Numbered from the stretch's first letter, positions 3 to 10,614 are shown. The stretch is 32,000 bases of DNA from Candidatus Hermodarchaeota archaeon (GCA_048886185.1 JBHLKY010000023.1:1-32000), one strand, 5' to 3'. The notes: generated by a model not told the origin, from the sequence alone. A program made the numbers and translations.

Positions 3-647
3 GCCATCACTGTTATGTTTCTTCTCCTTCCTCTGTTATTACATAGTAAGTATAAGATTCTCAGTTACTTAAGTATTGGAATTGGGTTTCATTGGAAATA
101 TATTTCTCTCATTCTCCTTCCTTATCTATTAATAATTGATTATGTTGAAAATAAACAGGTATTATTTGGATTTTTAACTGTTATCACTTCAATGATATTC
201 CTATCTTTTCCCCTACTCTTTTCACAATTTGTATTACGTTATTTCAGTTCATTTGGTAATTTAGAATTGTATTCTGGTCAAATTCCGTCAAATCCTCTAT
301 ATTTATTCTACCCTAGTATTTCCTCCCTACTATCCTCCCTCCTTCTGATTCTCGCCATACTGTACTGGGTAGGTATTTTTCCTCAAATTGATATGTCGAA
401 TATCAATATCCATGGGATTCTTGAACGGGTATATTGGTTCCCCTTTATTCTTCTTCTTGGTTTTCTTAAGATCTATGCTACTGCTTTTCCATGGTATTGG
501 ATGTGGTTTTACCCCTGCCTAATTATTCTCCCAAGAAAAATCCGAAGTTTATTCGCTGTTCTTTTAGGAGTTACATTTGCAATTGGACTTCTTGATTTTG
601 TTCAGATGACAGTAGGCTTTAAAACACTCATAGAACACTTTTTTTAA
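3..647 (+). CDS. Polytopic membrane protein, probably 5'-truncated by the window edge; possibly GT-C/GT87-like glycosyltransferase
   Basis: Frame is open to the window start and highly hydrophobic. GIGFHWKYISLILLPYL and YPWYWMW-like aromatic segments resemble GT-C membrane glycosyltransferases, but the family call is weak. Confidence 0.45.
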   Translation, partial: AITVMFLLLPLLLHSKYKILSYLSIGIGFHWKYISLILLPYLLIIDYVENKQVLFGFLTVITSMIFLSFPLLFSQFVLRYFSSFGNLELYSGQIPSNPLYLFYPSISSLLSSLLLILAILYWVGIFPQIDMSNINIHGILERVYWFPFILLLGFLKIYATAFPWYWMWFYPCLIILPRKIRSLFAVLLGVTFAIGLLDFVQMTVGFKTLIEHFF

Positions 648-664
648 GAAACAGTAATCATCCC

Positions 665-2017
665 CTATATTAAAATCTTACGTCCACGTGTAGAAAGCAA
701 TAATGGAATGTCTACTATTTCTCGGTACATCTCAGGGTGTTCTGTATGAATTGGGATCACTATTTGGGGACTGATCTCTTCTACTATTCGCTTTAAATCG
801 CTACGAGGGGCATGTCCAGATGCATGATACTGTTTAAATTCTAGACGGAAATGCTTGATCCATTCCATCATTCGGTTATAATCCAGTTCCCCTTGTTCAT
901 CAAAAGGATCCCCATGACTATAAAAATAGGTAGATTCATTAGGTTGTGGCTTAATATCAATTAAATCTGTTAATCTCCAAAATTCACAATGAAAAACATA
1001 CTCTGTTTGATCAAAATCTGGAGATTCAATCATATGGTATTTTTCACATAATTCACGCTCCCATTGAAAATAACGAGTCTTGGGACGCTTATAGATCTCG
1101 ATATTTGGATCAGCTAAAGAGGGAATCTCTAAGTGAGGATCATTTTGCAGTAGTTGAAGTAGATATGCCTGTTGCATGCTTATTAGAAGTTTTCGACCAT
1201 TTTCCTTAGAGGCTAAATAAAAGGATCTAAATCGATCAATGTCACGTAAGCTATAGTTAGCGATTGCTAATCCATTTGTTTCTTTGATTGCCTGGGAAAC
1301 ATCTTTTTGAACAGTTCTCTCTTCGGTCTCAAAATCTTCGTTGATGTTTGTTCCTTCTATCAGAAGTGTATTAAGGTTTTTTTTCCTAGCAAGATCAATA
1401 AAATCTTGTGTTAAATCTTTTCGGAATCCATGCAAGCGAATGTCTCCGCTGTATCCAATAGCTTGATCATTATAACTTTCAATAATAAATCCATAAGCTC
1501 CTGGAAGAGAATGATCAACGTGAACTGGAGTAACCTCAAGATCATTGATTTGAATCACGTCACCCGTCCTGAAAGTTCTTATATTTGAGGGATCATCTTC
1601 TGTAGCTTCTCTGATATATGGTCGGCCAAAACGAGGTCGTGTGGTGTCTTGGATCGATTGAATTATCGTGTTTGCAGTTTCTCCCATGAAAATAGGGATG
1701 TCTTCATGAAGCAAGTTTAAGTTCCCAAAATGGTCTAAATGTGCGTGAGATAGGAAACATGCGTTGATTGCCAGATTAGTGACATCCTCATTTGGAACAA
1801 ATTCTCGAGCATAAAGGCCTTCGATTCTCGGTACTATGTCGAACTCAAGGAAATCCTTAAGCCCTTGGGAAGTACGGGGGAGTAAAAATCCTGTAAAATA
1901 GGTGGCTTCTTGTTTGAATGATCTACCAAAATCTAATAGGATTCTTGAATCATTTATTTCTAAAAGGAAGGCGTTTCCACCAACCTCATTCACTCCCCCA
2001 TATGATGTGATGTACAT
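665..2017 (-). CDS. MBL-fold/beta-CASP metallo-hydrolase, RNase J-related (archaeal type)
   Basis: N-terminal YGGVNEVGGN and LLDFG; SHAHLDH metal motif, VDHSLPGA, YSGDIRLHG, HASGHA and PIHTEHP. ATG at 2017 is preferred over GTG 2029 because AAGGTGA (SD-like, overlapping the upstream stop) precedes it. Confidence 0.8.
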   Translation of the reverse strand: MYITSYGGVNEVGGNAFLLEINDSRILLDFGRSFKQEATYFTGFLLPRTSQGLKDFLEFDIVPRIEGLYAREFVPNEDVTNLAINACFLSHAHLDHFGNLNLLHEDIPIFMGETANTIIQSIQDTTRPRFGRPYIREATEDDPSNIRTFRTGDVIQINDLEVTPVHVDHSLPGAYGFIIESYNDQAIGYSGDIRLHGFRKDLTQDFIDLARKKNLNTLLIEGTNINEDFETEERTVQKDVSQAIKETNGLAIANYSLRDIDRFRSFYLASKENGRKLLISMQQAYLLQLLQNDPHLEIPSLADPNIEIYKRPKTRYFQWERELCEKYHMIESPDFDQTEYVFHCEFWRLTDLIDIKPQPNESTYFYSHGDPFDEQGELDYNRMMEWIKHFRLEFKQYHASGHAPRSDLKRIVEEISPQIVIPIHTEHPEMYREIVDIPLLLSTRGRKILI

Positions 2018-2025
2018 GAATGATA

Positions 2026-2826
2026 TCACCTTTTCTGGAAAATCAAAGCATAATGATGGTGTACATTTGGTACAAATGAATAAGGATAACCATACGGACG
2101 TAATGTTTTTTGGTTTTGTAACCAGATACGTTCCCCTAAAAATTGGTAATCTTGTTTTAAACCAAGTGCAACTTCAAAAGCCAGAGGATTAATCTCCCCT
2201 TTATCACGAATATTCTGGATAAAAATAATTAAATGACCACGATTTTTTAGAAGAATTTTAATTTGCTTAAATAAATTGATCAGTTCTCCAAGAAACGTGT
2301 CCTGATCCTCAATCATTCCGAGATCATTTGGGTGTTCTCCATATTGGAGATCTAATCCTTTTTGAAGCCGTTCTTGTTGATTATAATCCTTTTTCTTCTT
2401 TAATATTCGCCAATAGGGCGGTGAGGTGATACAGAGAGTAAATTCCATTCCATCAGCTATAAATAATGGGATGATCTCTCGAGCGTCTCCTTGATAAATG
2501 GGTAGGTTTGTCCGAGCTTGAGCTGTCTTTGAGTATTTTTCATAGAGTTCTATCCCAACTCCTTGTCGTCCACACTCATCACACGCAACTAATGTCGATC
2601 CTGTACCTACGAAAGGATCTAAAACCTTTTCACCTGGTTTTGTAAAAAATTCTATGAATTCTCGTATCATCGCAGGAGGAAATGAAGCGGGATGAAGGTC
2701 GATCTCATGTGAAATATCACTAGGTTTTCCATCAGCAATATACCATGATTTTGTAAAACGAATCCATTCCCGTCCTGTAAGGGCATTAAGCTTATTTCGG
2801 GGATCAATCTGTGACTCTTCGTCCAT
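2026..2826 (-). CDS. DNA amino-methyltransferase (likely N4-cytosine); motif I precedes motif IV
   Basis: HPASFP, motif I VLDPFVGTGST, GIELYEKY, then motif IV ITSPPY. SPPY is typical of m4C enzymes. Confidence 0.8.
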   Translation of the reverse strand: MDEESQIDPRNKLNALTGREWIRFTKSWYIADGKPSDISHEIDLHPASFPPAMIREFIEFFTKPGEKVLDPFVGTGSTLVACDECGRQGVGIELYEKYSKTAQARTNLPIYQGDAREIIPLFIADGMEFTLCITSPPYWRILKKKKDYNQQERLQKGLDLQYGEHPNDLGMIEDQDTFLGELINLFKQIKILLKNRGHLIIFIQNIRDKGEINPLAFEVALGLKQDYQFLGERIWLQNQKTLRPYGYPYSFVPNVHHHYALIFQKR

Positions 2827-2920
2827 TTCTATCCGCTATAGTACAATTGGGGTCTTGCTTAAAAATATTTAAACCATTCAATTTCCTTAGCATAATTATA
2901 CCTTTGGTTGTTGATGTGTC

Positions 2921-3568
2921 TTGAAACTTCAATGTGTGATCTTTGACATCGATGGTACTCTTGTGGACAACAGTGTTGACATTATTCGCTTATTTCAAAA
3001 GATTATGAAAAAATATCTGGATAAAGAAATGTCAGATCAAGAAGTTCTTTCTCTGTGGGGGCCTCCTGGTGATGAAATTTTTAGGAATGTTTTCCCTTCA
3101 GATCTAGTAGACCCTGCCTGGACGGAGTTCCTCCAAAGTTATCGTGAAATACATTCAACGACAGGATTTTTCACTAGAGATCAGTTGGTAAAAATAAAAA
3201 CTAATGTCCCCTACTTAACCATTTTCACCGGGAAGAGTAGAACTACAATGGGCATAACCTTAGAAAAATTAGGAATATTCGATCTTTTCGATCTTATATT
3301 GACTGGAAATGATGTCACTCGTTCAAAACCATATCCAGATGCGCTATATCGGACTGTTAGTACTTTTAACTTAAATAAAGATGAAACTCTTTTCATAGGA
3401 GATAGTCATCTAGATATTATGGCAGGAAAAGCGGCAGGGATAAAAACTGCTGCTGCTCTATGGGGAGCTGTTGAACCTCAAAGGTTATTAGAAAGTAGAC
3501 CTGATTATACTTTTGGTACTCCAAAGGAATTTATGGACTTCGTGCTTTCAGAAGACAGGTTTGCTTAA
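2921..3568 (+). CDS. HAD-superfamily phosphatase (Gph/PpaX-like)
   Basis: Motif I IFDIDGT, FTGK, KPYPD, FIGDSHLDIMAGKAAG; TTG start. Confidence 0.9.
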   Translation: MKLQCVIFDIDGTLVDNSVDIIRLFQKIMKKYLDKEMSDQEVLSLWGPPGDEIFRNVFPSDLVDPAWTEFLQSYREIHSTTGFFTRDQLVKIKTNVPYLTIFTGKSRTTMGITLEKLGIFDLFDLILTGNDVTRSKPYPDALYRTVSTFNLNKDETLFIGDSHLDIMAGKAAGIKTAAALWGAVEPQRLLESRPDYTFGTPKEFMDFVLSEDRFA

Positions 3569-5707
3569 ATGACTTCTAAATTAATTGAAGAAAAATTCCC
3601 TATCCTTGAGATAAGTAAGCTAGCTATCCCTGAGAGAAGTAGTTACAAACCTATATACCAGATTTCTAAGTGGTTTGCTCGACGTTCATCTTCTATATTC
3701 AGAGCGATTTTGTTGGGGTCAATACTTCCACCATCAGATGACCTCATGATGAATTTTTACCTTGACCATGACTTCTCAGATATAACTGTTCTCGATCCAT
3801 TCATGGGTGGGGGGACAACTATAATCGAAGGGTTACGATTAGGTTTAAGTTGTGTTGGTGTTGATATCAACCCAGTAGCTTGGTTCATTACAAAAACTGA
3901 AGCTGAAATGGTTGATTTAGGCGAACTTAAGAATTGGATAATGGATTGTGAGAAAAGGATTAAATCAAAAATCAAACAATGGTACTTAACTGAATGCCCA
4001 ATATGTCACCATCAAGCAGATATCATTTATACTCATTGGGTTAAATTGGTACCCTGTGAGAAATGTAAAAGTCAAGTTCCATTATTTCGAAACTTTATAG
4101 TCACCGCGAAAAAGGGAATTGCCACAATCTTATGTCCCTCCTGTGAAGCTATATTTGAGTATTCAGACTCGGTAAAAGGAGTACAAAGTTGTCCACAGTG
4201 CCAGTTCAAATTTAATCCCCTGAAAGGGAATCGGATCGGACGTAATGACTGTAGCTGCGCAAAATGTGGGAACATAACAAATATAATTGCCTTTCTCAAA
4301 AGGAATAAGAACCCTTTAGAAAGTAAATTATTCGCTATCGAGGGATATTGTTCAACTTGTGCCAATAACAATAATGAATTGTCTCCTCTTAAAACCACCC
4401 GATTTAAATTCATTAAAGCGGTTTCTAAACAGGATATTGATCTCTTCAACAAATCTAAAGAACAATGGAAACTTTATTCAGCTAAAATCCCATGGCCAAA
4501 AGATTTAATCCCCCTTGGAGTAGCTACGAAAACCCTTCATAATCATAACTATAAGAAATGGTCAGAATTATTCAATAGCCGTCAATTAATGGCTCTTACT
4601 ATGATTCTGGATTACATCCATAAGATTCCAGAGAGAATTTATCAAGAAATGTTTTTGGCTGCATTTGTAAATCTTCTTAACCATAATAATGTGTTCACAA
4701 GGTATTCTCCTAAAGGTCAGAAGGTAGAGGGAATCTTTGCTCGACATGATTTTCATCCTCTTTCAACATTTGCCGAAAACAATGTCTGGGGCACTAAATA
4801 TGGAAGAGGAACTTGGAGAAAATGTGTTAGGCAGCTCCTGAAAGGAAAGGAGTATAATCAAGCTCCTTATAATTATGTTCGGTACGAAAGTGATGGAGGA
4901 ATAACGAGAAAGAAGAAAACTTTTATTGGAAAAATTAATGGAAAAACGATTTCAGAATATGATGTAAATTTTCCTTCAGCTAAAAGCAATTTATTGCTTC
5001 TTTGCCAAGATGCAGAGGATCTTAAAGGGATTGCATTGTCTGTTGATCTCATCATTTCAGATCCACCATATGCTGATAATGTAAATTACTCTGAATTATC
5101 AGATTTTTTCTATGTATGGCTTCGATTGGTTCTTCAAAGTAGATATCCCTGGTTTTCTACAAATGAAACACCAAAGGATTCAGAAGCTATTATCAACCCA
5201 AATCGCCCCTTAAACTATTATGAGAAGTTAATTGAGATTCTTAAGGTCACGAAAGGGAAGCTTAAATCTAATGGATTATTAGTTTTCACATTTCATCACT
5301 CTGAGAAACAAACATGGTTTAAGCTAGCTGAGGTTATTACACAATCAGGATTCAGAGTAGTAAAGACGTATGCGATTCCGAGTGAAGCTCGAAATGTATT
5401 GAATATTCAAAAAAAGAAAGCTATTGCTTTTGATTTAATAATTGTATGTCGTTTTGATATACAAATACAACGCAAGATTATTTCCTTAGAGAAATTCAAA
5501 CAACTTTTCCTGAAATTTTATAAGAAAAGATTGGAATTATACAACATGGCAGATATTAAAGTAATGGATTATGATCATTTAGCTATTTATTCAGGGATTC
5601 TACTTGAAATGGATTCGAACTACCATGTTGTAAGTCATTCAGGGCACTACCTCTCTCAAAGTGAAATTTGGGAATACAGTTATGACCTAATGACTTCCTC
5701 CTTATAA
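3569..5707 (+). CDS. DUF1156/COG1743-type adenine-specific DNA methyltransferase with multiple Zn ribbons
   Basis: N-terminal LIEEKFP...KWFARR (DUF1156-like), motif I VLDPFMGGGT, motif IV SDPPYADNVNYSELSDFFYVWL, LVFTFHHS, and six CxxC pairs. ATG directly follows the HAD stop codon. Confidence 0.85.
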   Translation: MTSKLIEEKFPILEISKLAIPERSSYKPIYQISKWFARRSSSIFRAILLGSILPPSDDLMMNFYLDHDFSDITVLDPFMGGGTTIIEGLRLGLSCVGVDINPVAWFITKTEAEMVDLGELKNWIMDCEKRIKSKIKQWYLTECPICHHQADIIYTHWVKLVPCEKCKSQVPLFRNFIVTAKKGIATILCPSCEAIFEYSDSVKGVQSCPQCQFKFNPLKGNRIGRNDCSCAKCGNITNIIAFLKRNKNPLESKLFAIEGYCSTCANNNNELSPLKTTRFKFIKAVSKQDIDLFNKSKEQWKLYSAKIPWPKDLIPLGVATKTLHNHNYKKWSELFNSRQLMALTMILDYIHKIPERIYQEMFLAAFVNLLNHNNVFTRYSPKGQKVEGIFARHDFHPLSTFAENNVWGTKYGRGTWRKCVRQLLKGKEYNQAPYNYVRYESDGGITRKKKTFIGKINGKTISEYDVNFPSAKSNLLLLCQDAEDLKGIALSVDLIISDPPYADNVNYSELSDFFYVWLRLVLQSRYPWFSTNETPKDSEAIINPNRPLNYYEKLIEILKVTKGKLKSNGLLVFTFHHSEKQTWFKLAEVITQSGFRVVKTYAIPSEARNVLNIQKKKAIAFDLIIVCRFDIQIQRKIISLEKFKQLFLKFYKKRLELYNMADIKVMDYDHLAIYSGILLEMDSNYHVVSHSGHYLSQSEIWEYSYDLMTSSL

Positions 5708-5726
5708 AAAAGCTTTTGGGTTTAAA

Positions 5727-6491
5727 ATGTCTAGGGAATCAAATTATGAACTCATGATTGGAGATGTTCTCGAAACTCTACCATTAAAAGCAGAAAAACG
5801 GTTTTTTGATCTTATTATTGCTGATCCTCCTTTTGGAATTTCGTTTAATAAATCCAGCCATGAATATGGTGCTGAGGATTATGACTTATATCAAGATAAT
5901 TTTACACCTGAAACTTATTTTGAATTCTCCAAACAATGGATTCAAACCTGTTATAATGTATTAAATGTTAATGGGAGTCTTTACATAATATCTGGATGGA
6001 CTAATCTTCAATACATTCTGAATGCAATTAAACATACTAAGTTTCATATGTTGAACCATATAATTTGGCAGTTTACGTGGGGGGTTTATACCAAAAGACG
6101 ATATGCTACAAGCCATTATCACATTCTTCTATTGGTTAAAAATAAGAAAAATTATCAGTTTTACAAACAGAAACATTACGACGAGGACGTATTCTTTTGG
6201 CCAGATTATAATCGGGGAAATGATCCGCATCGTATAAAAGGACATCCATGCCAGTTGCCAATTGTACTCTTAAGGAAATTAATCCTCACCTCCAGTTCAC
6301 CTGGTGATCTTGTAGGAGACGTCTTTTCAGGAAGTGGAGGAACAATCCTGGCAGCGCGTCAAACATGTCGTGATGTAGTGGGATTTGAAATAAGAGAAGA
6401 ATATAAAGATATTATTTATCAGAAAGCCCGATTTGGAAAACTAGTGTCTCCCTCGGTTAAGCAATCTACTCTAGAAAGTTACCTAGAATGA
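5727..6491 (+). CDS. Beta-class N4/N6 DNA methyltransferase with a C-terminal PIP-box-like tail
   Basis: Motif IV IIADPPF near the N-terminus, IIW, HPCQLP, and motif I VGDVFSGSG near the C-terminus. Ends KQSTLESYLE*. Confidence 0.88.
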   Translation: MSRESNYELMIGDVLETLPLKAEKRFFDLIIADPPFGISFNKSSHEYGAEDYDLYQDNFTPETYFEFSKQWIQTCYNVLNVNGSLYIISGWTNLQYILNAIKHTKFHMLNHIIWQFTWGVYTKRRYATSHYHILLLVKNKKNYQFYKQKHYDEDVFFWPDYNRGNDPHRIKGHPCQLPIVLLRKLILTSSSPGDLVGDVFSGSGGTILAARQTCRDVVGFEIREEYKDIIYQKARFGKLVSPSVKQSTLESYLE

Positions 6492-6630
6492 GGAATCTCA
6501 TTAACTAGTCAATCACAGTGATAATTTGAAAAAAAAAAATAAAGCCATTTAATAAAACAGAATAAAGGCATTTTTAACAATTTTCTAGTTTCTATATGTT
6601 CTTATAGTGGAATAGTTGATTAAACTAACG

Positions 6631-7572
6631 ATGGCAATGGCTCAAGAAACAGATTTAGCGATCATTGGAGGAGGCCCAGCTGGTTTAACTGCTGCAATTT
6701 ACGGAGCTAGAATGGGTTTAAGGACTACAGTATTTGAAGCTGAGGAAATTGGGGGTGTTGCGCGAACAGCCAAAACAATCGAGAATTACCCCGGATTTAT
6801 AACGATTACTGGATCAGAATTAGTAGATAAGATGAAAGCCCAAGCTGAGCATTGTGGGGCTAAGATTATTCTTGATACCGTAGCTACAATTGATCATGCT
6901 AATATGATGATTACTACTTCAACGGATCAATGGAAAGCAGAAGCTATTATTGTTGCTACAGGATCAAAGCGTCGAAAGCTTGGATTGTCAAATGAAAAAG
7001 AACTTGAAGGGAGTGGGTTATCATACTGTGCTGTTTGTGATGGGCCAATTAACCGAGGAAATATAGTTGCTCTTGTTGGAGGCGGGAATACTGCAGCACA
7101 TGATGCTATCTATTTAGCTGGCGTAGCGAGAAAAGTTTTTCTAATTTATGAAGCTGATAAACTTGATGTCAATGAAACTATTGCAAGTCAAGTTTTTTCC
7201 CATACTGAGATTGTCCCAATGTTTAATTGTAAGATTGAAGAAGCTATAACAAAGCATGGGAATCTAAGAAAGCTAAGAGTGAAGAATCTTAAGACCACCG
7301 AAATATCGGAGATTCGGGTGAAAGCACTTTTTGTAGCAATTGGAGAAGATCCTTTCAAGCTAGCGACACTTATAGGAGTAGAAACAGAGATTTCTGGGAA
7401 TATTATTGTGAATAAGAACCAAGAAACTAGTGTTGATGGAATATATGCTGCTGGAGATGTCACAGGTGGGATTAAACAAATTGGAACCGCTGTTGGTGAG
7501 GGGATTGTCGCAGCACAGAGTGCAGGTTATTACATTAAAAGAAAAATTCGGATGAGGAAACAAACCAAATAG
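6631..7572 (+). CDS. trxB: Thioredoxin reductase (low-Mr, FAD-dependent)
   Basis: IIGGGPAGLTAAIY, IENYPG, ATGS, redox motif SYCAVCDG, VGGGNTA, GIYAAGDVTG. ATG at 6631 or 6637 is preferred to TTG 6616. Confidence 0.88.
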   Translation: MAMAQETDLAIIGGGPAGLTAAIYGARMGLRTTVFEAEEIGGVARTAKTIENYPGFITITGSELVDKMKAQAEHCGAKIILDTVATIDHANMMITTSTDQWKAEAIIVATGSKRRKLGLSNEKELEGSGLSYCAVCDGPINRGNIVALVGGGNTAAHDAIYLAGVARKVFLIYEADKLDVNETIASQVFSHTEIVPMFNCKIEEAITKHGNLRKLRVKNLKTTEISEIRVKALFVAIGEDPFKLATLIGVETEISGNIIVNKNQETSVDGIYAAGDVTGGIKQIGTAVGEGIVAAQSAGYYIKRKIRMRKQTK

Positions 7573-7627
7573 CTGAATATTATATTTCTGATAAAAATGT
7601 CAAACACTTTTCCGGAAGATGAACTAA

Positions 7628-7978
7628 ATGAATGATGGTAAATTTCCTGAGATAATAACTTCTCTTCCGCAAGCAGAGATTTCCATGGAAGGAGTTCAGG
7701 CCTGGATCGCTCAGGGAAGAGATTTTCAAATCGTTTTTTTTGAAATAGAACCAACAGGAGTTGTTCCTCCTCATAGCCATTCCGCTCAATGGGGAATCGT
7801 AGTAGAAGGAGAAATGTCTTTAACAATAGCAGGGGAAACAAAAAGATACAAAAAAGGAGATAATTATTTTATTCCTGAGGGTGTTATTCATCAAGCCGAA
7901 TTCCATACCCACTTTCGTGCTCTAGATTTTTTTGCTGACTCAGAACGTTATACTCCCAAAAAGAGTAATTCATACTAG
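7628..7978 (+). CDS. Cupin-2 domain protein
   Basis: PPHSH...QWGIVVEGEM and GDNYFIPEGVIH cupin metal-binding motifs. Confidence 0.9.
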   Translation: MNDGKFPEIITSLPQAEISMEGVQAWIAQGRDFQIVFFEIEPTGVVPPHSHSAQWGIVVEGEMSLTIAGETKRYKKGDNYFIPEGVIHQAEFHTHFRALDFFADSERYTPKKSNSY

Positions 7979-7988
7979 ATAATTAGCT

Positions 7989-9830
7989 TCAGTTGCTAGA
8001 AACAGGTATGGAGAAAGTCTCGCAATGGTAGTATTGAAGTATTAATTTATCTAATTCTTGGATTAAATGTGTCTTCAGAGGTTTTGCAACAGTAATTTCC
8101 TTCGCTAAATGGACAATTTGACGGAATAACGGGTTATTAAGATCAGGATTCTTGAGAGGAAGACGTTTAAGATTACGAATTGATATTGCATTAGTGTATT
8201 TTGAGCCCAAGTTAAATTGACTTTCATAAAACCATCTGTAAAGAGAAGAATTAAGAATAGAAAGAATATAAAATAGTAAATCAGAATTTTTACTATATTC
8301 TGTTGTTAATGTCAAGTTATATACATTTTGGGTGGTCCAGTAATTATTTGAATCATATGCGGCACAAAGAAATGGTTTAATCTTTTGAACGACAAGCTTG
8401 GGTGAACTATAAATAGATGGATCTTTCTTCGATCGGTATATAACTTTTGGATCAATGAAATGTGTTTTATTGATAGAGAATGCCTCAAAATCATCCCCAG
8501 TTAAAATTGGTTGATTCTTTTTAGAAGTAGGGGTCTTTTGGATTATATACTTAGTTTTTAAATTAATTTTTGGTAAGGAGTTATGGCAGGAGGAGCATTG
8601 AATGAGAGTTTTTCTACTCGATAAAGGAACCCATTCAATACAATTCGGACAATACATTACTCCACCACGTTTTGAGAGTTCTTCTCCTCTCTTTATCGTT
8701 AGAAATTGATTCAAAGGAGTGGAATCCTCGTGAATAAGCTTAATAATTTGTTGAGATTGCGAGTTAAATTCTTTTGTGAAAATAAAATCAATATTGGTTG
8801 TATAAGAGACTTGAGGGACACGATTCTTACCATCAATCAGAATCATGTGCTCTAATGAAATATTCTTTGAATAAGCTCCAATTAAGGAGATAAATTCTTG
8901 AGTAACGTCTTGGAAAAGGCCATGGAAATTTATGGAAAGGATTTGAAAATTTGTGGCAATAAATTTTCGGAGATGAATGTACTGGTTCGAACGTGCAATA
9001 TTTTTCGGGAGGAGATAAGCCAATAATCCTTTATCAGGAGTTATCAGATTTGCAGCCTTGTAAACAAAGAGAGAAAACGTGTTAAGATTTCTCTTTGGAC
9101 TTTGAAGTCCAAATTTATCATAATAATACTCTCTCTGACTTTTACTCAATTTCCCCCCCCAGGGAGGATTTCCAATAACAATATCAAAACCATTGGTGGT
9201 GGAAGGAAGACTAGTCCAATCTGATAATGAACTTTCTAAAAAATCTCCAAGAACAATGTTTGTGCTCAATATCTCATTAAAAGATGAGGGAGGGGGGTTC
9301 GAAAATAGTTTAATGAGGTTTTTATAACACATTGAAATAGCTTTAGGATTTATTTCCATTCCAAAAAAATTTGAATTAAAAATATCTAGAATAGCTTGAT
9401 CAGAGTTTTTTTTATCGGATTTTAAAAGAGTATTAATTTTATCTTCAATTTTTCTTATTGAAACAATGCTTGCTCGTAAAAATTCTCCTTCTCCTGCTGC
9501 TCCATCAAGAATTCGAATGCTTTTTAATGCCGTTCTTAATTTCACTATTTCTGATAGCTCTGCAGTATTAAGGATTTCGTTAAGACATAAAAATTTAGAA
9601 TCTATCTGTTGATTTAGATGCCTTGTTAAATAGTGGTCGATTGCTGTTTCTGTCATAGATTGTGCTAGATGGGAAGGTGTATAAAAGGCTCCGAATTCCT
9701 TTCTTCTACGGGCTTCTAAATCTTTATTGATAGTTTTCGACCTCTTTATTTTTAATTTTTCATAAACTACTAGTTTTCTAAATAAAAATCTATTGCCACA
9801 TTCTAAAAAGGGTCCATTCATGATGTTCAT
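7989..9830 (-). CDS. Gamma-class N6-adenine DNA methyltransferase (Eco57I/TaqI-like MTase plus TaqI_C-like TRD) with a Zn-ribbon insert
   Basis: Motif X FGAFYTP, motif I ILDGAAGEGEF, FGMEIN, GDFL, motif IV VIGNPPW; C-terminal PKLVVQKI...AAYD and YILSILNS. The start is uncertain (9830 or 9821). Confidence 0.85.
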   Translation of the reverse strand: MNIMNGPFLECGNRFLFRKLVVYEKLKIKRSKTINKDLEARRRKEFGAFYTPSHLAQSMTETAIDHYLTRHLNQQIDSKFLCLNEILNTAELSEIVKLRTALKSIRILDGAAGEGEFLRASIVSIRKIEDKINTLLKSDKKNSDQAILDIFNSNFFGMEINPKAISMCYKNLIKLFSNPPPSSFNEILSTNIVLGDFLESSLSDWTSLPSTTNGFDIVIGNPPWGGKLSKSQREYYYDKFGLQSPKRNLNTFSLFVYKAANLITPDKGLLAYLLPKNIARSNQYIHLRKFIATNFQILSINFHGLFQDVTQEFISLIGAYSKNISLEHMILIDGKNRVPQVSYTTNIDFIFTKEFNSQSQQIIKLIHEDSTPLNQFLTIKRGEELSKRGGVMYCPNCIEWVPLSSRKTLIQCSSCHNSLPKINLKTKYIIQKTPTSKKNQPILTGDDFEAFSINKTHFIDPKVIYRSKKDPSIYSSPKLVVQKIKPFLCAAYDSNNYWTTQNVYNLTLTTEYSKNSDLLFYILSILNSSLYRWFYESQFNLGSKYTNAISIRNLKRLPLKNPDLNNPLFRQIVHLAKEITVAKPLKTHLIQELDKLILQYYHCETFSIPVSSN

Positions 9831-9927: not shown

Positions 9928-10065
9928 TTGGGACAGTTTCAGTGTTATGCGTGTAAAAAGGAGCTGTTCAGTAAAATAGGATTATTGAATCATCTAAAAT
10001 ACACTCATTATATTGATAGAAGTGATAAAATCTCTCGAGTATTTAATAGAATCCAACGATGTTAG
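9928..10065 (+). CDS. Small C2H2 zinc-finger protein (45 aa; not in the supplied ORF track)
   Basis: My translation from TTG 9928 is MGQFQCYACKKELFSKIGLLNHLKYTHYIDRSDKISRVFNRIQRC*. It has exact C-x2-C-x12-H-x4-H spacing with hydrophobic residues at the canonical positions. Confidence 0.65.
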   Translation: MGQFQCYACKKELFSKIGLLNHLKYTHYIDRSDKISRVFNRIQRC

Positions 10066-10146
10066 AACAGAGTATCACAGACTTATGACCAATATACAAA
10101 TACAACTTATCAATAAAGTAGTAAAAAATACATTTTGGGACTCAAT

Positions 10147-10614
10147 ATGAGGGGTTTGACTCATGTACTATTCGGTATGGGATTTGTTAGTATATTGTTA
10201 GCTGCATCCAAGATTTCCTTAATCCTATGGGGAATTGGAACGTTCTTAATATCTCCAATTTTTTCTCGATTACCTGACCAAGATCAAAAGATAGCTAGGA
10301 TAACATTCAATCAAGTTGTCCCTCATCGGGGAAAAGGAACACACAATTTGTTATACGGACTCCCATTACTATTTATTTTAGTCGTACAGGACTGGATAAT
10401 AATAGGATTATTCCTAGTCTTGCTACTTGCTTCCATTTTTGGAGCATTGTTCGTTCATTCAGTTGTTGATGCGTTTAATTATGGTGGAGTTTGGTTTGGA
10501 ATTTTCCGTGTGAAAGGTTTTCTAGAATGGGATTCTTTCTGGGGAAATCTAGTTTTCAAAGTACTTGGTATTGCTTTAATCATAGTATCTTTACTCTGTT
10601 ATATAACAAATTAA
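10147..10614 (+). CDS. Membrane-bound metal-dependent hydrolase (YdjM/DUF457-like)
   Basis: THVLFG, LPDQD, PHRGKGTHNL and HSVVD motifs with hydrophobic helices; ATG at 10147. Confidence 0.8.
   Translation: MRGLTHVLFGMGFVSILLAASKISLILWGIGTFLISPIFSRLPDQDQKIARITFNQVVPHRGKGTHNLLYGLPLLFILVVQDWIIIGLFLVLLLASIFGALFVHSVVDAFNYGGVWFGIFRVKGFLEWDSFWGNLVFKVLGIALIIVSLLCYITN

Follow-up and report, generated by a model that had tools for sequence, protein, structure and literature searches.

Four methyltransferase genes of different architecture form a conserved and probably vertically inherited block in a genus of Hodarchaeales

A stretch of 32 000 nucleotides of archaeal DNA (JBHLKY010000023.1:1-32000; the window), with which contig C23 of a Hodarchaeales (Asgard) genome begins (G000; 4.84 Mb in 75 contigs), was analysed for the origin and role of four methyltransferase genes, here called M1 to M4. 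Near-identical proteins in public sources carry the labels Candidatus Hodarchaeales, Heimdallarchaeota archaeon and Ca. Hodarchaeum mangrovi. Positions 2026-9830 hold four intact S-adenosylmethionine (SAM)-dependent amino-methyltransferases of four architectures within 7.8 kb. Judged by comparison of sequences across the genus, these genes rather likely form a block that is inherited vertically ('persistent') and became fixed among housekeeping genes, made up of four [S/D/N]PP[Y/F/W] methyltransferases, all active and restriction-less. Nine public runs from four studies contain part or all of the stretch, in every case as contigs, and no RNA run is listed among them.

Conservation, gene order and selection in the genus

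Orthologs of M1-M4 were sought in 30 relatives, 18 of them from the same genus. Within the genus, M1 was present in 17/18 members (65-85% identity), M2 in 15/18 (full or partial; 53-71%), M3 in 17/18 (two partial matches counted; 69-83%) and M4 in 17/18 (42-63%); the misses fell on metagenome-assembled genomes that were 74-80% complete or on contig ends, except for M2 in G001 and G016. The loci of 13 relatives were retrieved and every protein of the window was mapped onto each of them, which gave the recurrent order orf15-RNaseJ-M1-HAD-M2-M3-(TrxR/cupin)-M4-YdjM-AlaX. The HAD gene precedes M2, or M3 where M2 is missing, in all 13 loci; in G001 and G016 it is followed directly by M3, and M2 is gone from the syntenic site. 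The thioredoxin reductase (TrxR) and cupin genes are variable filler between M3 and M4: M4 directly follows M3 in five relatives (G002, G004, G011, G013 and G018), the two genes are reordered in G015, and the cupin gene stands alone in G006. All four genes, their order, their motifs and their recognition regions were kept across species whose proteins diverge by 20-60%. Methyltransferase-like genes occur genome-wide at about one per 100 kb, so that four within 7.8 kb, in an order repeated in 13 relatives, are not a chance effect.

Identity to the window proteins was 62-73% for RNase J, 58-79% for HAD and 63-77% for TrxR, and M1 and M3 are conserved at least as well as these neighbours. Ratios of nonsynonymous to synonymous substitution (dN/dS) were calculated by the Nei-Gojobori method for six genome pairs. 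They were 0.03-0.16 for M1, 0.12-0.22 for M2, 0.14-0.22 for M4 and 0.04-0.09 for M3 in five pairs; the sixth M3 value (0.30) came from a near-identical pair with few changes. Neighbouring genes gave 0.03-0.43 (RNase J 0.06-0.17, HAD 0.09-0.25, TrxR 0.07-0.16, AlaX 0.03-0.17, orf15 0.08-0.43), and purifying selection on M1-M4 lies in the same range as that on the flanking housekeeping genes.

The catalytic [S/D/N]PP[Y/F/W] motif is intact in M1-M4 and in all 12-14 orthologs of each (M1: 14 sequences), and the SAM-binding motif is retained in all orthologs but one of M4 (L028), in which the pattern did not match. Residues 111-180 of M3, the putative target-recognition region, are its most conserved part (mean identity 85%), and the TaqI_C half of M4 has a mean identity of 54% versus 46% in the catalytic half; that the target-recognition regions do not evolve fast speaks for specificities that are stable. 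An internal control came from two methylases in a cluster on contig C5 of the same genome, which were found in only 7/18 genus members, all from the subclade nearest to G000; this indicates that other methylases of the genome are younger and less firmly fixed than the block in the window.

All open reading frames (ORFs) of the window were scanned with Pfam, and a subset near the cluster with NCBIfam and PADLOC. No nuclease, integrase or transposase family was matched in these scans, although unrecognisable nuclease folds could escape them. No tRNA gene or flanking direct repeat was found at the block, and its GC content shows no anomaly.

The preliminary description of the window had reported four architecturally distinct methyltransferases without a restriction enzyme, and had proposed that they are a chromosomally embedded set rather than a mobile restriction-modification (R-M) island. 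The former was borne out by domain, motif and family scans; the latter was strengthened by the unchanged order in the loci mapped through the genus, by purifying selection and by the lack of signs of mobility. An order inherited genus-wide points to long-kept solitary methylases rather than to a mobile defence island. The coupling to housekeeping genes that had also been described stood in part: the junctions are exact (a 4-nt overlap of the RNase J-like start with the M1 stop, an M2 start abutting the HAD stop and a gap of 19 nt between M2 and M3), but they are not obligatory, as M1 adjoins RNase J in 9/13 loci and is separated from it in 4/13, and TrxR and cupin vary as given above. The coordinates of all features are collected in Table 1.

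Table 1. Features of the methyltransferase block in the window, with examples of the Dna2-like gene from relatives
Feature	Position	Strand	Family matches and motifs
orf15	15-647		no family match
RNase J-like beta-CASP/MBL ribonuclease	665-2029	-	Pfam Lactamase_B_2 + RMMBL; NCBIfam RNase J family
M1, 266 aa, permuted PF01555-type	2026-2826	-	PF01555 in two permuted pieces; FVGTGS at 72 before SPPY at 135
HAD-IA phosphatase (PpaX / phosphoglycolate phosphatase-like)	2921-3568	+
M2, 712 aa, short DUF1156/HmaB-like	3569-5707	+	FMGGGT at 78, three CxxC...CxxC zinc ribbons, DPPY at 498
M3, 254 aa, beta class (CcrM/RsrI-like)	5727-6491	+	PF01555 7e-40; DPPF at 33 before FSGSGG at 200
PIP-box-like C-terminal tail of M3, candidate PCNA-docking peptide	6459-6488	+	K-Q-S-T-L-E-S-Y-L-E
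Thioredoxin reductase (TrxR)	6616-7572	+
Cupin	7628-7978	+
M4, 613 aa, gamma class	7989-9830	-	Eco57I + TaqI_C, zinc ribbon; NPPW at 221
C2H2 zinc-finger micro-ORF, 45 codons, divergent from M4	9928-10065	+
YdjM-like protein	10135-10614	+
Dna2-like gene of a relative	L025:12291-15206	-	Dna2 nuclease + SF1 helicase
Dna2-like gene of a relative	L022:14087-16999	-	Dna2 nuclease + SF1 helicase
Dna2-like gene of a relative	L028:2048-4978	+	Dna2 nuclease + SF1 helicase

The RNase J-like gene is present in a single copy in G000 (one tblastn match genome-wide) and is context rather than a restriction enzyme candidate of note. The product of orf15 was considered as a hidden nuclease and rejected, given the lack of a family match and language-model features resembling those of GT87/MptA-type membrane glycosyltransferases. 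The micro-ORF beside M4 was recovered at the same position only in G010 and G014 (66-68% identity) and possibly encodes a small DNA-binding protein. In one relative (G013; L027:7341-8612(-)) an IS605 OrfB/TnpB-type gene lies between M1 and HAD, the sole mobile-element gene seen in any copy of the block.

The individual enzymes and the C-terminal tail of M3

In a pairwise alignment, residues 4-628 of M2 and 3-728 of a bacterial DUF1156 protein of 990 aa are 36% identical. The DUF1156 motif at the N-terminus, the insert with the zinc ribbons and the DPPY core are common to the two, and the catalytic core is complete in M2. Relative to the bacterial DUF1156/HmaB proteins of ~1000 aa, M2 is without the C-terminal ~260 aa and without ~100 aa of the ribbon insert. 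The 712-aa form was found only in Hodarchaeales-labelled sequences, its next relatives being ~1000-aa bacterial DUF1156 proteins of 33-37% identity. M2 scored 139.8 bits against NF042963 (cut-off 1000) and 20.3 against Pfam DUF1156 (cut-off 24), and in 11/11 loci holding M2 its neighbours were HAD and M3, with no helicase or DUF499 ATPase beside it. Since it falls far below the family cut-off and has no Hma partner genes, M2 is read as a stand-alone derivative of an Hma-type DUF1156 methylase, which would have lost the C-terminal domain together with the helicase and ATPase partners.

M4 (at most 613 aa) has no nuclease domain; its best PADLOC models are MTase_II, and Type IIG models match the methylase part only. 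It is predicted to be a stand-alone gamma-class N6-methyladenine (m6A) enzyme. Its orthologs begin near residue 37-43, which probably puts the true start near 9720, ~100 nt downstream of the position that was called.

In eight relatives M4 has a co-oriented gene directly upstream that encodes a protein of ~970 aa with Dna2 nuclease and superfamily 1 (SF1) helicase domains and a weak RING-like C-terminal end; in a ninth the gene lies 14 kb off (9/18 in total; examples in Table 1). The gene is absent from G000 and from eight further members of the genus, all of which retain M4, and full-length homologs (34-35% identity) occur in another family of the class with no methyltransferase nearby. As a main reading, the idea that the Dna2-like protein is the nuclease that M4 lacks was therefore rejected. 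More probably the protein is the dispensable Dna2 homolog of the lineage, and its absence from G000 and eight other members makes it appear to have been repeatedly lost in the genus.

M3 matches CcrM in the PDB at 2.5e-21 and has the classical beta order, with motif IV before motif I and the target-recognition region between them. At E <= 1e-70, orthologs were found in 17/20 genus members and in seven genomes of one other genus, and in none of 28 other families (301 genomes). Metagenomic homologs of 53-62% identity are labelled Sigyn-, Hel-, Loki/Prometheo- and Hermodarchaeota. On a Sigyn-labelled contig (L062:8001-13305) and a Hel-labelled one (L064:8001-15449) the M3 homolog stands in a run with three further methyltransferases (PF01555, Eco57I-type and Dam-type), and on a Prometheoarchaeota contig it is solitary, with SRP19 and guanylate kinase on either side. 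Because the Sigyn and Hel partners are not orthologs of M1, M2 or M4, clustering of methylases around the M3 family recurs independently. An ancient Asgard-wide four-methylase block was rejected on the same ground and on the restriction of M3 orthologs to two genera.

The C-terminus of M3 reads QSTLESYLE. In 14 genus orthologs the M3 fold ends near residue 237 and is followed by ~10 variable linker residues and the pattern x-T/S-L-[D/E]-x-[F/Y]-L, in which L249 and L253 never vary and the positions of D/E and F/Y are conserved as well; the Gln is not present in all. Many distant Asgard homologs (Sigyn-, Loki-, Hel- and Hermod-labelled) end in K-K-x-x-L-[D/T]-x-F-[L/M] after a longer linker, and in a subgroup of homologs that are unnamed or labelled Thermoplasmata the motif is absent. 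In an AlphaFold2 model of M3, residues 234-248 are coil of low confidence and residues 249-253 form a short helix. Among other proteins of G000, FEN1 ends in QQALDKFF and RNase HII has SKTLENYF near its end. All 3356 ORFs of >=150 aa in G000 were scanned over their last 14 residues with [QKRSN]xx[LIM][DE]x[FYW][FYLMW], the Leu being preceded by a small residue, and four matches were obtained versus 0.4 expected from shuffled tails: FEN1, M3, the archaeal Nre protein (Pfam) and an alpha/beta hydrolase.

The archaeal consensus of the PCNA-interacting protein (PIP) peptide is KTTQSTLDSFFK (PMC4929162), and NreA, a client of PCNA, needs its C-terminal PIP motif in order to function in Haloferax (PMC4929162). 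The M3 tail fits Q-x-x-[LIM]-x-x-[FYW]-[FYWL] at the terminus, behind a flexible linker and conserved among orthologs, and on these features of the sequence it is a selected short linear motif of predicted PCNA-docking type. When PCNA (residues 1-256, alignment of 21 rows) was modelled in complex with M3 (alignment of 14 rows), the score was 0.44 and that of a single control 0.32, values that speak neither for nor against binding. A review of archaeal PCNA partners names no PIP-motif methyltransferase, only an adenine methylase that co-purifies with NucS in Pyrococcus abyssi (PMC4929162). No archaeal PIP-box methylase was found in the literature that was searched, and the main text of the Asgard replisome paper contains neither 'methyltransferase' nor 'PIP'. 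The PCNA of the genus (G000 C9:117150-118007; L038:1540-2400) carries an extremely acidic C-terminal tail of ~35 residues, rich in E, D and W, which was not seen in the shorter homologs of other sampled families.

The recognition sequences of M1-M4 could not be inferred, the PDB relatives (CcrM, RsrI, MboIIA, PvuII and DpnA) being too distant. Under the favoured reading each enzyme would write its own short motif chromosome-wide, the four together producing a fixed multi-motif methylome, and PCNA would bring M3 to newly made DNA through the C-terminal PIP-like peptide, so that methylation would follow behind the fork. The marks may serve as a self label for restriction or defence encoded elsewhere, or in replication, repair or regulation. 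That the block has a regulatory or replication role is something we only infer, from the PIP-like tail of M3 and from the Dna2-like gene near M4 in 9/18 relatives.

Genome-wide repertoire, site avoidance and alternative explanations

G000 contains roughly 50 methyltransferase-like genes in several clusters, of which the locus in the window is one part of a genome-wide expansion. PF01555 gave 37 match segments (about 26 genes) and Eco57I 29 segments (about 25 genes of 500-1090 aa). A second cluster (C1:151600-169000, L067) holds an M1 paralog of 502 aa (40% identity, tblastn), an Eco57I-type gene of 766 aa and M2 paralogs of 706 and 725 aa, interleaved with GNAT, PhoU and phosphate-transporter (PHO4) genes and with no recognisable helicase or nuclease; its M1 and M2 paralogs are also conserved in the genus, and a gamma-beta methylase pair follows 10 kb beyond it (C1:177400-180200, L068). 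Further Eco57I-type/PF01555 clusters lie at C5:33000-72000 (L080, L081), C16:55-65 kb, C10:101-110 kb and C33:7-25 kb, and Type IIG models match only the methylase part of their long methylases. The sole C5-cytosine methylase of G000 (C3:195441-196993; L074 5441-6993; 323 aa) sits inside a ribosomal-protein/RNA-polymerase gene cluster, its start overlapping the end of a DUF2122 'RecB-family nuclease' gene.

Observed/expected (O/E) ratios of palindromes and other k-mers were calculated with a maximal-order Markov expectation over the whole of G000. GATC (0.94), CTAG (1.10), AGCT (1.04) and TCGA (0.90) were unremarkable, in keeping with the earlier impression from the window that sites are not obviously avoided; that impression failed for CCGG, which is strongly avoided. 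The lowest 5-mers were GGWCC (0.68) and CCWGG (0.74). Deamination of 5-methylcytosine (m5C) does not explain the CCGG deficit, since CTGG/CCAG is not enriched (O/E 0.93), and loss by this route was not supported either by the position of the only C5-cytosine methylase inside a ribosomal-protein cluster. Pfam models of HpaII, Bse634I/Cfr10I and MspI found no match in G000, a weak blank, as the latter two matched no control genome either.

Several points weigh against the block being persistent, active and restriction-less. The M3 family is patchy at phylum scale, occurring in 25/301 genomes from two genera, so that the block is persistent at the level of the genus and does not go back to the ancestor of Asgard. 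Two species have lost M2, and the couplings to housekeeping genes vary among loci. CCGG has an O/E of 0.40 (1009 sites in 4.84 Mb), the lowest of the 4-mers and >6 standard deviations below the 4-mer mean; this suggests present or past restriction pressure somewhere, and it could not be linked to any of M1-M4. The closest solved folds of M1 in a Foldseek search are the RNA N2-methylguanosine (m2G) methyltransferases Trm11 and Trm14 (TM-score ~0.5), and its profile touches the rRNA m4,2C synthase 8VYD. Finally, no nuclease partner was recognised at the block, but Type II nucleases are hard to recognise by sequence and no genome-wide screen for them was made.

The points on M1 bear on the possibility, which we regard as rather unlikely, that it is an amino-methyltransferase of rRNA or tRNA and that the locus holds three DNA methylases. 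The linear motif order (I to IV) is that of UPF0020-type RNA enzymes; the best solved Foldseek matches are archaeal Trm11, Trm14/TrmN and RlmL-type proteins; the family profile across motifs I-IV reaches Trm14 at 2e-6, Trm11 at 3e-5 and 8VYD at 6.5e-5; M1 is translationally coupled to RNase J in G000; and DPANN homologs (43-49% identity) stand among CarS, PCMT, tRNA-dihydrouridine synthase (Dus) and diphthamide synthesis genes. These fold matches are distant (12-16% identity), M1 lacks RNA-binding domains such as THUMP or PUA, and the patchy distribution of its family among Asgard families is unlike that of a core enzyme of RNA modification. Far stronger are the matches to DNA enzymes, namely PF01555 in two pieces, the PADLOC MTase_II model PDLC03391 over the full length (3e-39) and a Thermus beta-class methylase in the PDB with the family profile (2e-28). 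The reverse motif order, I before IV, makes M1 a permuted relative rather than a member of the beta class, and its substrate is probably DNA, as an N4-methylcytosine (m4C) or m6A enzyme. In a stronger version of the favoured reading, several enzymes would together provide DNA methylation as a fixed housekeeping function of the genus that is tied to replication, and PCNA-tethered M3 and its partners would re-mark new duplexes with several motifs for genome maintenance or gene control rather than for defence; this we hold to be rather unlikely.

If M1-M4 were instead the modification halves of R-M or defence systems, with nucleases unrecognised in the block (the RNase J-like or Dna2-like proteins) or elsewhere, the methylome would serve defence. 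The Dna2-like gene upstream of M4 would fit, as would the DUF1156/HmaB defence methylases as the nearest relatives of M2, the depletion of CCGG without an excess of CTGG/CCAG, as restriction avoidance predicts, and the Eco57I-type genes of G000, some of 800-1090 aa with best matches to Type IIG models. The Dna2-like gene is, however, missing beside M4 from half of the genus and has methylase-free homologs in another family, RNase J is a single-copy gene that lies apart from M1 in four loci, M2 has no Hma partners, and the models for CCGG-cutting families named above found nothing. Long fixation at one site under housekeeping-like selection is the opposite of the patchy R-M pattern (PMC10609329, PMC6471742), and we consider this explanation unlikely. 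A protective 'vaccination' set, in which methylases are kept to pre-methylate the chromosome against restriction enzymes of viruses, plasmids and selfish R-M modules, would agree with the size of the repertoire, most of it without recognisable nucleases, and with younger clusters that are limited to a subclade beside older ones that are genus-wide, a pattern reminiscent of a ratchet by which genes are acquired and then retained. Neither a virus nor an incoming nuclease of matching specificity is known, and the PCNA-type tail and the long conservation of the recognition regions are explained no better than by an internal function, so that we judge it distinctly improbable. The persistent block of solitary methylases remains the favoured reading.

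Significance and comparison with known systems

The best candidates for functions of prokaryotic DNA methylation beyond defence are persistent orphan methylases, on which knowledge in Asgard is scant. The genus offers a natural comparison series, in which M2 is gone from two species and half of the members have lost the Dna2-like neighbour. Should the M3 tail bind PCNA, DNA methylation would be coupled to the clamp in the archaeal lineage nearest to eukaryotes, and if the reading in which methylation is wired into replication were true, it would be a prokaryotic counterpart of replication-coupled maintenance methylation among the archaea most closely related to eukaryotes. If the enzymes do no more than mark the chromosome as self for restriction encoded at other loci, the block still shows that methylases may become fixed in the manner of core genes while their partners are gained and lost. 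New here are four apparently persistent enzymes of four architectures in one syntenic block, accompanied by a second conserved cluster with the same architectures, a trimmed and partner-less DUF1156 enzyme, and a predicted tail of clamp-docking type.

Like the archaeal clients that carry the PIP motif at their C-terminus (FEN1, RNase HII, NreA and NucS), M3 ends in Q-x-x-L-x-x-Y-L after a flexible linker; it differs from them in having Leu at position 8, in a Gln that is not present in all orthologs and in that its docking is predicted. As with eukaryotic DNMT1, the tail would tether a DNA methylase to the replication clamp, whereas M3 is a small beta-class N6/N4 enzyme unrelated to that C5 enzyme. 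M2 shares the DUF1156 motif, zinc-ribbon insert and DPPY core with the Hma/DUF1156 system (PADLOC HmaB; NF042963), from which it differs in being ~280 aa shorter, in having no helicase or DUF499 neighbour and in standing in a run with HAD and M3 that is predicted to be co-transcribed. The block differs from Type II R-M systems, as no cognate endonuclease was recognised beside its methylases, and M4 differs from Type IIG enzymes in having no fused nuclease domain.

The closest likeness is to the persistent orphan methyltransferases of archaea, which are solitary and vertically kept and mostly recognise short palindromic sites; 20 of the 29 persistent groups in the survey of Anton and Roberts are Type II orphans (PMC10609329), and examples are the CTAG m4C enzymes of Halobacteria (PMC6471742) and the Dam-like GATC and the AGCT m4C enzymes of Methanomicrobiales and Nitrososphaerota (PMC10609329). 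M1-M4 resemble these (PMC10609329, PMC6471742) in being solitary, vertically kept and under purifying selection in a housekeeping context; they differ in that four architectures stand side by side in a conserved block, with a second conserved cluster elsewhere, and the survey reports no persistent group for this Asgard genus (PMC10609329). Very many, mostly solitary methyltransferases and many motifs are also found in Cenarchaeum symbiosum, with 22 Type II methylase genes of which 17 are orphans (PMC10609329), and in Atabeyarchaeia, with 11-13 methylated motifs (PMC11529989); G000 differs from both in having roughly twice as many methyltransferase-like genes, several of them in clusters whose conservation in the genus is measurable.

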